Shown: piece after piece, positions 7,020 through 33,822 of the stretch
Position numbering within the stretch: the first letter of the stretch is position 1
Layout: the number at the start of each line of letters is the position of its first letter
Assembly (NCBI RefSeq): GCF_004010195.1
Contig: NW_025213622.1
Span: 1 to 34,585 of the forward strand
DNA: 34,585 bases
Direction: 5' to 3'
From: Chiloscyllium plagiosum
Taxonomy: Eukaryota
The notes under the pieces: model-generated
Told to the model about the DNA's origin: nothing
Databases searched by the model: none
What the model saw: only the letters and a program-made list of their open reading frames with translations
Program-made: the position numbers and the translations under genes

Positions 7020-7252
7020 CAAAGAACTACAGATGTTGTAAATTAAACAAAAGTGGAAATTGCTGGAAAAAACTCAGCAGGTCTGGTGTCATCTGTGGAG
7101 ACAGAAATCAAAGTTAACATTTCAAGTCTAATGACCCTTCCTCAGAACTCTGAGGAAGGGGTTCAGAGGAAGGGTCACTGGACCAAAACATTAACTCTGA
7201 TTTCTCTCCAAAGACCTGCTGAACATTTCCAGCAATTTCTGTTTGTGTCTCA
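7020..7252. mobile_element. Palindromic Penelope-pLTR-derived short element with hammerhead motifs on both arms
   Basis: Imperfect inverted arms (gaaattgctggaaa.../...tttccagcaatttc). Minus-strand hammerhead at 7112-7149: AGTT CTGAGGA A GGGTC atta GACTT GAAA TGTT AACT. Central 12-bp stem cccttcctcaga/tctgaggaaggg at 7135-7160. Confidence 0.75.
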
Positions 7253-12785: not shown

Positions 12786-12910
12786 TAAAGGTCACTGGAG
12801 TTTATAAGTTAACACTGCTTTTCTCTTCACAGATGCTGCCAGCCCTACTGAATTTCTCCAGCAATTCTTGTTCATTTCAGATTTCCAGCATTTGCAGTTT
12901 TTTGTTTTAT
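12786..12910 (+). mobile_element. Penelope-pLTR-derived short element, degenerate
   Basis: cacagatgctgccagccctactgaatttctccagcaatt...atttccagcatttgcagt is the same family as 7020-7252. Confidence 0.65.
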
Positions 12911-14830: not shown

Positions 14831-15154
14831 TGTTATTTCATGCCCCTCTTCACTCTTCTAATTTATCTATTAAGCAATCCCCTATACTTTCTTTACTTCT
14901 TGAGGACTTCTGTTTCTCTGAGTCCTTCAGTATTTGCTATTTGTGTGGATAGTCCAGCCAAACCAGCCCACATACAAAGAAAGTCTTTCTCCCACTTGTG
15001 TGTGATGAAGTCATTGAAAAATTCCCAGTAGCTCATTACTGTCCCTTGCCTTTCCTCTGTGAGCTGCACTCTCTGTAAATCCTCTGTAAAGGGAAATCCA
15101 GCTTGAGTGACAGTGAACAGATGAATCCTCAACCAATGACTAAAACACAGAAGA

Positions 15155-15250
15155 AAGGTCACTAGGCTCGAAGCGTTAGCTCTGATTTCTTTTCACAGAT
15201 GCTGCCAGACCTGCTGTGCTTTTCCAGCAACTTTTGTTTTGTTTGTGATT
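15155..15250 (+). mobile_element. Penelope-pLTR-derived short element with a mutated hammerhead
   Basis: cagaaga aaggtcactaggctc gaag cgtt, followed by cacagatgctgccagacctgctgtgcttttccagcaa. Confidence 0.65.
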
Positions 15251-16375: not shown

Positions 16376-16865
16376 CTTGTACAACAAAGCACTGACTCTA
16401 AGTGGGCTTTCCCAGTGGGTAGTGAGAGATTTCGGATTGACCCAGTATTCGCCTGATCTCAAACACCATGAAACACTCACAAAGCTCAACCTCAGCTCAG
16501 AGCAGCAGAGACTTCAAATGAACATGAGAATTAGGTGCAGGAATGGCCATGCTGATGATCAATAGAATCATGTCAGACCCTATACCTCCTGCACTGTTGC
16601 CGATGTAAAGACTGTCTTTTTACATTATCTGGATATTTAATGGTGGACTGAAATAAGAAAAGGAATGTCTTAAAAGCCAAGGATTTTGGATGGAATTGCT
16701 GCATTTTTAAGAAACAAGAAACTGAAACTCTCTGCAAGTTGTGTTTGCACTGCTGCTTTGTTCAAACAGATGGGAAGGGCTGGTTACTGATAGGCTGGCA
16801 CCACAAGGTGTGCACAAAGTGAGGTTTGGCTGACAACCAGTAGCTGATTGGTCCATTGAATTATG

Positions 16866-17089
16866 TTTGTTGAAACTTTATTGCTGGAACAGCACAGCAG
16901 GTCAGGCAGCATCCAGGGAACAGGAGATTCGACGTTTCGGGCACAGGCCCTTCTTCAGGAATGAGCAGAGAAAGGCCTGTGCCCGAAACGTCGAATCTCC
17001 TGTTCCCTGGATGCTGCCTGACCTGCTGTGCTGTTCCAGCAATAAAGTTTCAACTTTGATCTCCAGCATCTGCAGACCTCACTTTCTCC
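16866..17089. mobile_element. Young 224-bp non-autonomous Penelope-pLTR-derived fold-back element with a 13-bp TSD
   Basis: Perfect 81-bp inverted repeat at 16869-16949 / 16974-17054. Flanking direct repeat CCATTGAATTATG at 16853-16865 and 17090-17102. Sequence is homologous to the Penelope 3' end at 25470-25597. Confidence 0.9.
16927..16962 (-). ncRNA. Minimal type I hammerhead ribozyme motif (intact core)
   Basis: AUUC-CUGAAGA-A-GGGC-cugu-GCCC-GAAA-C-GUC-GAAU: 4-bp stem I, 4-bp stem II, palindromic ACGU in place of stem III, GUC cleavage triplet. Confidence 0.8.
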
Positions 17090-17280
17090 CCATTGAATTA
17101 TGACCAACTGTGGATAACAAAAACCATCATCTCACCAACAACAATGTGATTAAACCCTGGGATCGGAACACTTTGTACTTGTGTGTAATACTGCCGGAAG
17201 GGGAGGTAGTGTGTCTGTTTGCAGTTTTAAAAAAACCTGGAACCTGGAGAAAGCCGGTTATCTTATCCCCCAGTTAATGT

Positions 17281-17501
17281 TGTTGTGCTTGGAACGAGGT
17301 CAGCTAGGTGGAGCTAATAGAATATGGGTTCCCTGATTGAGGATGTTAACCTGGTCCAATCTGGGAGCCCTGGCTGACAGACATAAACAGGAGTGTCAGG
17401 AGAGCTGGCTCTGTGCTAGCTGGGTGACTGCCATGTACTATCCACATATAAATAAAAAGGTGACCTTCTAATGGTATACAGGACTTTATTGAGTTATTTC
17501 A
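17281..17501 (+). mobile_element. Solo LTR of the same Gypsy family as 21023-29521
   Basis: TG...CA termini; shares agaatatgggttccctgattg, ctggtccaatc, aaacaggagtgtcag and gagttatttca with the paired LTRs. Flanks aatgt/ggtgt are at best a degenerate TSD. Confidence 0.85.
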
Positions 17502-17899: not shown

Positions 17900-18430
17900 A
17901 GATTTTAGATCACCAGGCCAGTGTTATTAATGAAGAAATTCTCCTCATCTCAGTCCAAAATGGCCTTCCTCTTACCTTAAGTCTGTTTCCCCTATTCTAG
18001 ACACTCAGCCAGAGGGAATCATCCTGCCTGCATCCGTTCTGTCGAGCCCTGTTGACTATCGTATGCTTCAATGATCTCACCTCCGATTCTTCGAAACTCT
18101 GGAGAATACAGGTTCCTGAATTCCTCCCCAAAGAGAATTTTGTCTTTCCAGGAATCAGTCTGGTGAACCTCCATGCTAGATACCTCTTAAACAGGTAGAC
18201 TAAAGCTGCAGGGACAAAGTGAGCACTGCAGATGCTAGAGATCAGAGTCGAGAGTGTGGTGCTGGAAAAGCACAGCAGATCAGGCAGCATCCGAGGAGCA
18301 GGAAAATTGACGTTTCGGGCATAAACCCTTCATTAGGACTATAGCTGCACACAATACTCCAGGTGGGGTCTCAGCATAATTCCTTGTTCCTGTACTCAAA
18401 CCCTTGTGCAATGAAGCCCAATTTACTAAT
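17900..18430 (-). mobile_element. Old CR1 relic hosting a short insertion
   Basis: WRFTRLIPG motif, and a RPHLEYCVQ-like sequence at ~18345-18370. Confidence 0.65.
18211..18336 (-). mobile_element. Penelope-pLTR-derived short element with an inactivated hammerhead and probable 13-bp TSD
   Basis: Minus strand: CTAATGA AGGGT ttat GCCC GAAAC GTC (core G5 changed to A). Flanks are gactaaagctgca (18198-18210) and gactatagctgca (18337-18349). Confidence 0.8.
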
Positions 18431-21022: not shown

Positions 21023-22130
21023 TGCAGTGATTGTAATGAGGTCAGACAAGTGGACATTACAGAATATGCGTTCCCTGTTTGGGGCTCTTAATCTGGTCCA
21101 ATCAGGGAGTCCTGGCTGGCGGATAAGAACAGGCGTGTCAGTGATTCTGTTCACTCTGAGAGCTGGCTCTGCAGGAGCTGGATCAGTGTCAAGGACTCTC
21201 CATGTGTCAAAGGCTGACTTGTAAATGGGATACCAGCCCCTGTGGAGTTATTTCAGTGGTGACATGAGAAAAGCATGTTCTTAAAGACATTTGCTCGCAG
21301 CAGTCTACTTTGAGTCGGGGTAAGCATTTCTGACATCATACCATTATTTGGAAAGCTTGACTCACTCAATCTTGCCATCAAAGACTCAGCCCAGTACGTC
21401 AACAGAACGTGTTATGTTTTCTGGGCAAATGACTTTGGGACAGTTAGAAAGCAACAAGTAATTCTCCTGACAGCTTTTTCACTCATTAAGAGCCTAAATA
21501 GGTGCCTAACTTTCCCTGAGGCACCACATACTAAAAGCTTTAAAGAGATGATGTATTCCATCAAGGAATATTACAACCCCAAGCCTCCTTTAATGCTGAG
21601 ATATTTATCAGTTTTACTTAGCAATATGAGAAGCAGAGGAATCCGTACTGGGATTTTGATGAGGTCAAGGCGACTGGCAGAGGCTCCTAAATAGGCTCCG
21701 AATAATCAAAAAAGCTCAGGGTCCACAAGCTGTCAGGGGAATTTCATCTGCCCCAATGTCATTACAGATTAATGGTACAACTTAGGTTCCAGTCTCTTAT
21801 GAGAAGCAGCTGGTTCAGTTAGCACTGATTGTAGTAAAAGGCTCAGGCCCAAGCTTGATGGGGTGAAATCTGTTGAGAGAGAATTACCTTGATTGGCTCA
21901 ACATTTTTTGCTTAGAAAATGGCTGCCTGAGTCAAGTCCTAACTAAACATGTGGATGTTTTTTAGGAAGGTCTAGGGACTATCACAGGAGCGAAGGCCAC
22001 CTTGCACGTTGAACAGGAAGCAGTTCCACAATTCTGCATGACCAACCCAGTGCCATCGGCTCGACAATTAAACTAGAGACAGAAATCAGAAGCTGGATAG
22101 TGAAGGAGTCATTAAACCAATCCAGTTTCG

Positions 22131-22622
22131 GAATGGGCAGGACCGGCCGTACCGACTGTGAATGGCCAGGACCGGCCGTACCGACTGTGAATGGCCAGGA
22201 CCGGCCGTACTGACTGTGAATGGCCAGGACCGGCCGTACTGACTGTGAATGGCAGGACCGGCCGTACTGACTGTGAATGGGCAGGACCGGCCGTACCGAC
22301 TGTGAATGGCCAGGACCAGCCGTACTGACTGTGAATGGCCAGGACCGGCCGTACTGACTGTGAATGGGCAGGACCGGCCGTACTGACTGTGAATGGGCAG
22401 GACCGGCTGCACCGACTGTGAATGGGCAGGACCGGCCGTACCGACTGTGAATGGCCAGGACCGGCCGTACCGACTGTGAATGGGCAGGACCGGCCGTACT
22501 GACTGTGAATGGGCAGGACCGGCCATACCGACTGTGAATGGGCAGGACCGGCCGTACTGACTGTGAATGGGCAGGACCGGCCGTACTGACTGTGAATGGG
22601 CAGGACTGGCCGTACCGACTGT
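22131..22622 (+). repeat. Minisatellite, 17 x 29 bp (GAATGGSCAGGACCGGCCGTACYGACTGT)
   Basis: Seventeen head-to-tail units counted (one is 28 bp), with no spacers. Confidence 0.97.
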
Positions 22623-22874
22623 GATGCACAATGGGACAGTTTGCCTTTGGGGGGATTTTAATCAAGCAGTAAACCACTTGTCACAGCTGGATAAATACCC
22701 AATCCCTCACCTGGAGGATTTATACACAGAGCTGGTAGGAAGGCTGTCCTTCACCGAGCTGGACATGAGCCAGGTTTGCCTGCAATTACGGTTAGCCGAG
22801 GAATCCCTGAAGTGGACTACAATTAATACTTATAAGGGTTTGTACCAATGTACAAGACTGTAATTTGCGGTACC

Positions 22875-25134: not shown

Positions 25135-25597
25135 CTGCAGGTCCTTGGACTCCTCCATCGCCAGACCATAGCAACATGACGGCTGGAGGAAGAGCGCCTC
25201 ATCTTCCGCCTAGGAACCCTCCAACCACAAGGGATGAACTCAGATTTCTCCAGTTTCCTCATTTCCCCTCCCCCCACCTTGTCTCAGTCCCAACCCTCAA
25301 ACTCAGCACCACCTTCCTAACCTGCAATCTTCTTCCTGACCTCTCCGCCCCCACCCCCACTCCGACCTATCACCCTCACTTTAACCTCCTTCCACCTATC
25401 ACATTTCCAACGCCCCTCCCCCAAGTCTCTCCTCCCTACCTTTTATCTTAGCCTGCTTGGCACACTCTCCTCATTCCTGAAGAAGGGCTCATGCCCGAAA
25501 CGTCGATTCTCCTGTTCCCTGGATGCTGCCTGACCTGCTGTGCTTTTCCAGCAACACATTTTCAGCTCTCATCTCCAGCATCTGCAGTCCTCACTTT
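25135..25597 (+). mobile_element. 5'-truncated Penelope element (endonuclease C-terminus plus pLTR) inserted in the CR1
   Basis: 10-bp TSD TTCCTTAATC (25125-25134 / 25598-25607); encodes QVLGLLHRQTIAT*RLEEERLIFRLGTLQPQGMN. Removing it restores the CR1 reading GKIKEPRMTR. Confidence 0.9.
25473..25508 (+). ncRNA. Minimal hammerhead ribozyme motif in the Penelope pLTR
   Basis: attc CTGAAGA A GGGC tcat GCCC GAAA C GTC gatt; core intact, one U-U mismatch in stem I. Confidence 0.75.
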
Positions 25598-28162
25598 TTC
25601 CTTAATCTTACCCCTTCTTACCTGTCTCAGAGGAACAAATATTTGCATCACTCGCAACAACTGCTCCTTAAATAGTCTCCACATGTCTGCTGTGCCCTTT
25701 CTGTGGAACAATTGCTCCCAACCTGTACTTCCTAACTCCTGTCTGATAGCGTTATAATTTCCTTTTCCCCAATTAAATATCTTCCCTCGGTAACTGCTCC
25801 TTTCCCTCTCGAAGGCTATGATAAATGTGAGGCAGTTGTGATGACTGTCACCAAAGTGTTCTCCCACCGTGAGATCTGACACCTGTCCTGGCTCGTCGCC
25901 AAGCACCAAATCCAAAATGGCCTCTCCCCTCGTCGGCCTGGCTACATACTGAGTAAGGAAACCCTCCTGAACACACCTGACAAAAACGGCTCCATCCAAA
26001 CCATCTGCATTTAGGAGATTCCAGTTGATATTGGGAACATTGAAATCACCCATAACAACAACGCTGCTACATCTGCATTTTTCCAAAATCTGCCGGCCTA
26101 TGAGATCTTTAATCTCCCTACTGCTATTAGAGGGTCTGTAGAAAAGCCCCAATGCGGTGGCTGTTCCCTTGCCGTTCCTAACTCCCACCCGTACTGACTC
26201 AGTAGACAAACCTTCCTCAACAATCTTCGTTTCTGTAGCTGTGACGCACTCTCTGATTAACAATGCTACACTCCCTCCTCTTTTTCCACCCTCCCTGTTC
26301 TTTTTAAATGTTATAAACCCTGGAACATCAAGCAACCATTCCTGCCCCTGTGAAACCCACGTCTCCGTTATGGCCACAACATCATAGTCCCAGGTGCTGA
26401 TCCATGCTCTAAGTTCATCACTCTGACACTCCTTGCGTTAACTGATCCCTTTGTTTCATCACGTGAGAAACCTTCCTGATAGATTCATTACATCCTGTCA
26501 CTGCCCCCCTCTCAGATATGTAGTTCTAATTCCCAACCCCCTGCCAAACTACTTTAAACCCTTCTGAACCACATGAGCTAATCTCCCACCCAGGACATTT
26601 GTGCCCCTCCAGGTCAGGTGCAGCCCGTCCTTCATGTACAGGTCCCACCTTCCCCAGAAGGTATCCCAATGGCCAAGGTATCTGAAGCCCTCCCTCCTGC
26701 ACCAGCCTCGCAGCCACGTGTTAAACTGCATTCACTGACTGTTCCTCATCTCACTATCTCGTGGCACTGGTAGCAAACCTGGGATCACTACTCTACTCAT
26801 TCTGCTCTTCAACGTCCAACCTAACTCTCTGTAGTCACTTTTCAGATCCTCAATCCCTTTCCTGGCCACATCATTGGGTCTATGCCTTAGAAGGGAGAAA
26901 TATGTGTTCCAAGCACCCCAAGTGACCTACTTTGGTACAGAATCAACAAGACCGGGTTATGCCCACTGAAAGATGAAATGAGGGCGATCAAAGGTGCTCC
27001 GGCTCCCACGTCTGTTACGGAGCTTAAGTCTTTCCTTGGGCTGTTGAATTACTGTGGAAAGCTGAGAGAAAACCTAGCCTCCACCTAGCATCTTTACATC
27101 AGCTCTTAAAGAAGAATCAGCCGCGGAAATGGTCACATGGCCAAGCCATAGCTTTCAGTGAAGTGAAGAAACAGCTCATATCCTCGAAGGTGTTGACAGA
27201 CTATGATCCTAAGCAAGATCTGATATTAATCTGCAATATCTCCCCGTATGGCATCAGGAGGGTATTAGCTCATTGGTGATCCAATGGAGAGGAACGCCCA
27301 ATAGTATGTACTTCCTGGACTTCAGCTAATACAGAGTGTAAATACATTCAGACAGAGAAAGAAGGTTTGGCAGTCATATTTGGTCATATTGCACCACTGC
27401 CTTTTCAGATGTCAATGTGTAATAACAATGGAACACAATCCCTGCCAGGTCGACTTAAAGAGGATGAGGCTGTGCCGCCCATAACTGTTGGTCGAATTCA
27501 GCAATGTTTCTAAAATTAAGTGTGTGTCATTATAAATTGGAACACCATCTGGGAGAACAAGAATGTGGGTGCATTGAGCTGCCTCCCACTGGCAGGAACA
27601 TCACCAGAGGTACCACCACTGGGAGAGTCCGTAATCACAGCTGACAATATCAGACTTTGGATGCAGAAAGATCCAGTCCTGGCAAAACTGAAATGGCTGG
27701 TGGTGATGGGGGTAACTGAATGGCCATTACAACCGGAACTGAAACCTTGTTGACCTGGAGAGACCAGATCATAGCAGAAGATGGTATATTATTGTGGGGA
27801 GCAAGAGTGATTGTCCGGAGCAAAGGGCACCACCAGATAGTGGCTGTCCTCCACCAGCGTCATCCAGGGGTTTCCAAAATGAAGGTGTTGGCGAGAAGTT
27901 ATGCCTGGTGGCCAGGACATACCTGCAAGGGTGGGGCAGTGCTCACGTGCCAGTATTACCACCACAGCTCCCTCATATTCATGGGAATGACTGAGAACCC
28001 TGGACTCAGTTACATGATGATGATGTAGTTCCTTTCATGTATTCAATGCTCTTGGTCATTGTGATGCCCACTCAAAGTGGCTGGACGTACATAGATTTCA
28101 CTCATCAAACACAAGGACAATAGCCAAATTGCATGCTTTTTGTTTGCAATACATGGACACCT

Positions 28163-32883: not shown

Positions 32884-33415
32884 CTGCAGGAATAAAAAAA
32901 TGACAAGATTAGGATTCAGAGTTAGCCCCAAAATAAACCCCCACCCCTCCTCCATTGCCATGTCATCCGAGAGTCATATGTCACAAAAAGAGCAAAGGAG
33001 CAGGAAAGAGATTGGCCCATGATTGATTCTGTCTGCTCTCTTTGATCAAAAATGGAAGGATAAGCCTTTCTGTGTTATTGACACCTCGACTGCAGACATA
33101 ACACCATCACATTGGACCCAGTCACTGGGCAGACTTCAGATTGAGAGTGAACTTCAGGCAGCAGCACCCACCTTGACCCGCAGCCCCACTTCATTAATTA
33201 GTCTCCAACAGTGGATTCAAAATGAGGCTAACACCCACTTGGAGCCCCACGTTCATTGGGTCATGATAACGACCAGCAGCTTCCCTCAGTCCACGACCCC
33301 TTCATTGGCTGATGGTCCAAGTCTTCTGAAACTATTCTGTGAAGACCCTCTGCTTGTCCAAAGCAAACATACTCTAGACGATTGATAACAGCAACCTGAC
33401 CACACTGACCAGACC

Positions 33416-33822
33416 AAAGTCCCTCTACACTGCCACCCTCAAATACACCCAAAACAGGGACAGCATGGGGTTAGATACAGAATAAAGCTTCCTCTACACT
33501 GACACCCTCAAATACACCCAAACCAGGGACAGCATGGGGTTAGATACAGAGTAAAGCTTCCTCTACACTGACCCCCATCAAACACATCCAGGACAGGGAG
33601 AGCATGGGGTTAGATACAGAGTAAAGCTTCCTCTACATTGTCCCCTATCAAACACATCCAGGACAGGGAGAGCATGGGGTTAGATACAGAGTAAAGCTTC
33701 CTCTACATTGTCCCCTATCAAATACACACAGAGCAGGGCCAGCACAGGTTAGATAGAGAAAGGATCCCTCTATATTGTACCCATGAAACACTCCAAGGAC
33801 AGTTGCAAGATGAGGTTAGATC
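33416..33822. repeat. Tandem repeat, ~69-70-bp unit, about 6 copies
   Basis: ttagatacagagtaaagcttcctctacactg...cagggacagcatgggg; ttagat recurs at 33471, 33540, 33610, 33680, 33749 and 33816. Confidence 0.92.

Follow-up and report, generated by a model that had tools for sequence, protein, structure and literature searches.

According to the available sections of PMC8557442, an adjacent inverted 5'-truncated copy and a tail of 30-40 bp are typical of Penelope-like elements, and a CX2-5CxxC linker is found upstream of the GIY-YIG domain in Neptune and Nematis while being absent from Penelope and Poseidon. In the same line, the accessible text of PMC3846280 describes an inverted pLTR with a target-site duplication (TSD) of 9-10 bp and a 31-bp tail, the head-to-head arrangement being the most frequent one. 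Regarding the enzyme, a lizard Penelope protein is described in the available part of PMC11167929 as nicking and extending both DNA strands, with a preference for ATT and a predicted dimeric structure; the tail is presented there as the stretch between two start sites of reverse transcription, and the hammerhead of that element needed the protein and was dispensable for insertion in vitro. As for the ribozyme, the passages of PMC4209133 at hand report no detectable cleavage by single minimal hammerheads and low activity for dimers, and mention minimal hammerheads paired on opposite strands at a distance of 100-700 bp.

The locus considered here is a 224-bp insert (16866-17089) in the window, i.e., the whole 34,585-nt stretch of DNA that was analysed. 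Its two halves are head-to-head, 5'-truncated copies of a Penelope-like 3' end (pLTR), and we consider it very probable that they entered together, in a single and dead-on-arrival insertion made by an endonuclease-bearing Penelope-like retroelement in the cartilaginous-fish lineage. The host context is provided by an exon at 32883-32754 on the minus strand, the sole NRG3 exon in the window (130 nt, with an AG acceptor and a GT donor), which encodes the first part of the EGF domain and is, over 43 amino acids, 100% identical to NRG3 of three rays and 95-98% identical to that of several sharks. This match to cartilaginous-fish NRG3 indicates that the host belongs to this group and that the minus strand is the strand of the NRG3 pre-mRNA, the latter as the sequence-only reading had assumed. 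The element sits about 15.7 kb into the intron following this exon, with its intact hammerhead on the transcribed strand. Many LINE fragments, which we take to be CR1/L2-like, are scattered elsewhere in the intron, and the window also holds tandem arrays at 22049-22685 and 33410-33821 with periods of 29 and about 69-70 bases, respectively.

The insert is bounded by two copies of a 13-bp AT-rich TSD (16853-16865 and 17090-17102, 13/13 identical) that carries ATT on both strands, the recurrence of such a 13-mer by chance at a given place being expected with a probability of 2.6e-8. A perfect 81-bp inverted repeat (16869-16949 and 16974-17054, 24 nt between) reaches 86 bp with 14 nt between when one mismatch (16950/16973) is accepted, and the geometry first described for this locus, namely the insert size, the TSD, the 81-bp repeat and its 24-nt loop, proved exact to the coordinate. 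The inverted copy lies on the minus strand (16970-16869); it begins about 12 nt upstream of the hammerhead core, lacks the tail, ends 35 nt before the 3' end of the element, and is 91% identical over 100 nt to another copy in the window (25465-25564). The sense copy (16969-17054, plus strand) is 5'-truncated inside the hammerhead core and is followed by a 35-nt tail (17055-17089, plus strand); together they are 88% identical over 121 nt to 25481-25601. The two arms thus diverge from the middle, overlap by 2 nt (16969-16970) and differ in that the last 35 nt are present on one of them only. They are identical at 85/86 positions, against 83-91% for the other window copies compared with them. Three T letters (16866-16868) between the left TSD and the inverted copy match neither the target nor the element tail and were probably added without a template.

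Four of 24 listed runs, covering DNA contigs of the same species (organism A) and of a sister species (organism B) as well as RNA, were compared over 16550-17450. A contig of the sister species joins 16853 to 17091 without a gap and thereby displays an exact empty site with one TSD copy; the skip amounts to 237, that is, the insert plus one TSD, and the flanks around it show 11 differences in 379 letters. The insertion is therefore young, and the precise empty site in another species bears out the age proposed for it from the sequence. Regarding polymorphism of the insertion, none of the pieces listed from two organism A samples runs across either boundary.

The assignment to Penelope-like elements is supported by a longer, likewise 5'-truncated copy of the same family (25135-25601, plus strand, flanked by direct repeats of 6-10 bp), to which the arms match and which successively contains a decayed endonuclease-type C-terminus with one stop, a pyrimidine-rich 3' region, the hammerhead (at 25477), the pLTR and the tail. 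The pLTR origin that had been suggested for the insert is upheld. Copies of the same repeat are found at several places in the window: two closer ones lie at 25465-25601 and 18211-18338, and three further places hold older relatives. There is no full-length copy in the window. The 43-aa remnant of the decayed ORF matches 15 proteins at E<=0.001, several of which show, by eye, a GIY-YIG-like core upstream, and an indexed protein search with the same remnant returned no match, with 0/3 candidates scored. For one of the 15, P0135, Pfam gives a weak GIY-YIG match that stays below the cut-off (E 0.008), and another matching protein, P0130, carries a CX4CxxC linker in a part beyond the window remnant. 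The source was probably an endonuclease-bearing element of Neptune/Nematis type; the endonuclease link is drawn from the 43-aa decayed remnant and one sub-threshold Pfam match (1/15), and the clade is a lead. An RVT_1 match in P0135 was discounted, as it seems to belong to a different element that was merged into a chimeric gene model. P0132, P0134 and P0135 display the same endonuclease C-terminus fused into predicted host proteins, including a skate neuromedin-U receptor model and a VKOR-domain protein; such fusions probably arose either as chimeras of annotation or through exonisation of fragments.

The family is clearly very abundant: the summed contig depth, which is no copy number, reaches 0.6-6.8 million over the element versus 10-24 in the unique flank. 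Behind 17089, loose ends cluster in 218, 201 and 151 contigs and in 286 RNA reads, with mixed AT-rich flanks, so that the end of the tail can be taken as the common 3' end of the family. In the four runs, the flank consensus behind this end is alike and AT-rich, with TTGA or a similar motif at +4 to +7, and the TSD has TTGA at the same place (17090-17097); with an agreement of only 0.35-0.38, this would be a weak target preference. One subfamily-specific stretch (17043-17047, mirrored at 16878-16880) sums to about 0.95-1.04 million in two organism A runs versus 130-1697 in organism B, while shared pLTR positions sum to 4.4-5.1 million in all three DNA runs; these depth sums suggest a burst of the subfamily after the species split.

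How the two arms were joined can be proposed from their ends. The insert shows the inverted 5'-truncated neighbour (16869-16970), the one-sided 35-nt tail, the TSD and the empty orthologous site of EN+ Penelope-like elements; besides, each flank joins a 3' end of the repeat, one with the tail and the other without, which, together with the ATT of the TSD, directly fits the behaviour described for the lizard protein. In the best explanation, the enzyme would nick both strands 13 bp apart, reverse transcription would be primed by the bottom-strand nick at the tail-distal start and by the top-strand nick at the tail-proximal one, and both cDNAs would stop after about 100-120 nt before being joined through the 2-nt overlap. 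Within that explanation, and deduced as they are from one insertion, these nicking, priming and joining steps jointly have a little better than an even chance of being right. Two RNA copies, or two passes over one of them, would be needed, because both arms contain the same stretch. Immediately outside the TSD copies, the five letters on one side (16848-16852) and on the other (17103-17107) are reverse complements, so that both proposed nicks would share their 3' context; this fits a dimeric enzyme, as a single case seen post hoc. As a rule for the family, such symmetric flanks were found absent by eye at both of the other repeat-flanked copies in the window (2/2).

The alternative that survives best is self-priming, in which one cDNA or antisense template would fold back on itself and thereby generate the inverted arm, as the available part of PMC3846280 proposes for palindromic Penelope junctions. 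The 3' end of the left arm can indeed pair with the core region 14 nt away, in an 86-bp stem, and both arms share all the minority letters of one subfamily, as expected if one had been copied from the other. However, two RNAs from one young source would be expected to share these letters just as well, and copying of the folded-back left arm would meet the three extra letters and the TSD rather than the 35-nt tail, a second template still being needed. Self-priming explains the hairpin and not easily the tail, and we regard it as a serious but rather unlikely route, at well under an even chance.

Regarding the ribozyme, when both strands were scanned for hammerhead cores enclosing a stem, four places were returned in the window, one of them here (core at 16958, minus strand). 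The motif extends over 16962-16927, with a predicted cut between 16931 and 16930, and comprises a 4-bp stem I, one unpaired A, a 4-bp stem II, GAAA and GUC, stem III being a two-base palindrome without a loop. These conserved cores, stems I and II, and the loop-less palindromic stem III are those of a minimal type I hammerhead, which, lacking loop III, is predicted to fold only as a dimer. The hammerhead had been called complete; the motif is indeed present at this position, but it would be complete only as one half of a dimeric ribozyme. When two copies of the motif are co-folded, the active dimer is not the lowest-energy form, and the energy model cannot settle dimer cleavage. In the Rfam search there was no hammerhead match among four weak ones, all below the gathering score; the best of these, GmglnB1 5'UTR (33.7 bits versus a cut-off of 54), was rejected as reflecting the hairpin. 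It had also been stated that the other arm lacks the core, and the plus-strand arm does begin inside it and keeps only its last three letters. The hammerhead is the ordinary pLTR motif of the family, present also in the longer copy, and its intact state on one arm would reflect a cDNA that extended about 12 nt beyond the core.

Since the mismatch at 16950/16973 becomes a U-G pair in minus-strand RNA, the stem is continuous in the transcript. The minus-strand RNA of the insert is predicted to fold at -191.4 kcal/mol (z -26.8), with 0/200 shuffles as stable. Prefix folds of the NRG3-strand transcript place the onset of the hairpin by 16942, before the GAAA and the cut site exist, in agreement with the earlier proposal that the complementary arm is transcribed ahead of GAAA and GUC, and forcing ribozyme stems I and II costs a predicted 46.7 kcal/mol relative to the hairpin. 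As the hairpin forms first and at such an advantage, the ribozyme should be buried within an 86-bp hairpin of the NRG3 pre-mRNA; the silencing fold put forward in the sequence-only reading is thus reproduced in prediction, the hairpin out-competing the ribozyme by about 47 kcal/mol. The idea of a purposeful lock did not fare as well: the layout is that of a published Penelope by-product, and in three of three listed joints of other copies with a whole hammerhead no arm covers it. Because monomers are reported inactive and these other joints keep an uncovered ribozyme, the antisense lock looks incidental; there is little to silence and no sign of covering arms being favoured. The burial of the motif in the hairpin follows from the geometry and most likely serves no selected function.

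Intronic hairpins of 86 bp can plausibly serve as ADAR substrates, and this one is probably an incidental candidate. The RNA run (X21, about 2% of which was read) has hardly any reads on the unique flanks; reads on the element therefore come from other copies, and no locus-specific sign of ADAR, Drosha or Dicer use was seen. A>G places number 14 in the RNA run versus 6, 6 and 9 in the DNA runs, a difference for which an editing call would require DNA of the same individual.

The possibility remains to be weighed that the fold-back unit moves as a mini-element of its own, non-autonomous and mobilised in trans, and retains the antisense arm as a means of silencing the ribozyme. On the folding side, the lock is thermodynamically real, at the cost given above, and the hairpin starts before GAAA and GUC are made; in addition, pLTRs suffice in cis for mobilisation in trans according to the available part of PMC3846280, and pLTR-related non-autonomous retrozymes exist (bioRxiv 10.64898/2026.07.22.740005, in the portion at hand). 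The joints between head-to-head copies are less favourable. All 15 listed joints of other copies, 169 further ones existing, read from the inverted arm to the sense arm, and all 15 differ in their breakpoints; two of the 15 are also found in an independent run of the sister species. In the three listed joints whose inverted arm retains the entire hammerhead, the partner arm begins no earlier than 17048 and leaves the hammerhead uncovered, joints with two long arms like this insert possibly lying among the 169 beyond the 15 listed. Besides, since other copies extend upstream of 16970, as shown by a loose end at 16971 and by the copy at 25465, the centre of the insert is a truncation. The arms are pieces of a longer element, and with breakpoints differing at every listed joint, the dedicated mini-element family that had been suspected is not borne out. 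The cleavage data of PMC4209133 and the dispensable lizard hammerhead of PMC11167929, both cited above from partial texts, speak against it as well, and retrozymes are arranged head to tail whereas the insert is head to head.

Some other joints do reach a depth of 100-300, about ten times the single-copy value, in two samples of one study, and this recurrence at high depth may point to renewed copying of some fold-back units. In contigs of so abundant a repeat, joints may also arise as artefacts of the library or the assembly, although two of the 15 listed ones recur in the sister species. A joint of 16962 to 16929, with two letters between, has a depth of 137 and 169 in two runs, and corresponds either to two arms meeting head to head close to the cut site or to the hammerhead duplicated in tandem over 36 nt, in which case it would be a natural dimer. 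On balance, we judge the mini-element very unlikely, and just as improbable the bolder version in which Penelope proteins re-insert a re-transcribed fold-back unit whose arm is retained against hammerheads cutting the host pre-mRNA in trans-dimers. If it were true, thousands of locked ribozymes and perfect hairpins would have been spread over introns by a lineage-specific burst, and such hairpins would be the main ADAR or small-RNA substrates of the genome.

An origin as two neighbouring independent insertions, as a MITE or fold-back DNA transposon, or as an assembly artefact is hardly credible: long palindromes can be assembly artefacts and in none of the compared runs does a listed contig piece cover the full stretch, but 0.95 of the sampled words are present in one run, possibly the source sample itself, a single TSD encloses the entire unit with an exact empty site, the arms are closer to each other than to the other window copies, and both are pieces of a retroelement 3' end, with three and 35 letters outside them and no terminal inverted repeats.

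Related sequences occur elsewhere in the window. At 7020-7250, a related pLTR family has left a further and older fold-back, with arms about 69% alike, a minus-strand hammerhead-like motif at 7145 and possibly a flanking repeat of 7 bp. Single, older pLTR stubs lie at 18211-18342, 15150-15238 and 12787-12897, the first of which has mutations in its core and may be flanked by a 7-bp repeat, and a further minimal-hammerhead motif with another stem II is found at 2978 (plus strand). The 270-aa C-terminal part of another Penelope-like ORF, which we take to be Poseidon-like, occupies 498-1310 on the minus strand, with a different, decayed hammerhead-like 3' end downstream. Its weak GIY-YIG match was the sole Pfam match among five window stretches, and a GIY-YIG-like peptide overlaps it on the opposite strand (1177-1400, plus). 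Outside the window, public contigs were scanned with a 22-letter family pattern; the loci returned (six metagenome, zero viral and three bacterial) matched over 22-27 letters only in 9/9 cases, and none held the element.

A single insertion of this kind is of little weight, and its value is that of a clean, dated fossil of Penelope integration, in which the empty site is exact, the tail lies between two different 3' ends, the arms meet in a 2-nt join and the target is nearly symmetric. Young junctions of this kind, gathered across the genome, could show whether two-ended priming or self-priming applies. Should many of these units sit in introns, long perfect double-stranded RNA would be obtained from them in one step, much as from inverted Alu pairs in primates. 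The mechanism of Penelope integration is called unresolved in the literature, as far as the consulted portions of it go. The literature search, outside which lay most subscription papers and Repbase, returned no description from sharks and no twin priming in Penelope elements.

Both the insertion pattern and the small ribozyme motif have already been described, and the insert is ordinary in this respect. It resembles non-LTR retrozymes (bioRxiv 10.64898/2026.07.22.740005, available part) in being short, non-coding and pLTR-related with a type I hammerhead, but these are head-to-tail tandems of at least two units with a hammerhead each, whereas the insert is head to head with one intact motif. 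With the minimal hammerheads presented in the accessible sections of PMC4209133, where we found no cartilaginous-fish example, it shares the CUGANGA and GAAA cores, the extra base between positions 9 and 10.1, the G10.1-C11.1 pair, the palindromic 15.2-16.2, the absence of loop III and the 4-bp stem I; stem II has 4 bp here versus 7-8 bp in the Schistosoma families and, unlike those hammerheads, the motif is covered by its own antisense copy. Like Anolis carolinensis Poseidon PAc (Frangieh et al. 2024, PMC11167929, available text), it has a tail between two alternative 3' ends, an AT-rich target with ATT and a hammerhead upstream of the tail, while PAc belongs to the Penelope/Poseidon clade and the proteins matching the ORF remnant point to Neptune/Nematis; the derivation of the head-to-head layout from two-strand priming was not found in that text and is our own. 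Finally, as in the EN+ Penelope-like insertion units of PMC8557442 and PMC3846280, as far as the available parts show, a head-to-head inverted copy with a small junction overlap is combined with a one-sided tail (35 nt here versus 31 nt in Pen2a_Av of PMC3846280) and a TSD of about 10 bp (13 bp here versus 8-10 bp in the rotifer EN+ examples). Unlike in these units, both copies are here cut to about 100-120 nt, by which the ORF is lost and a near-perfect hairpin with a 14-nt loop is left.
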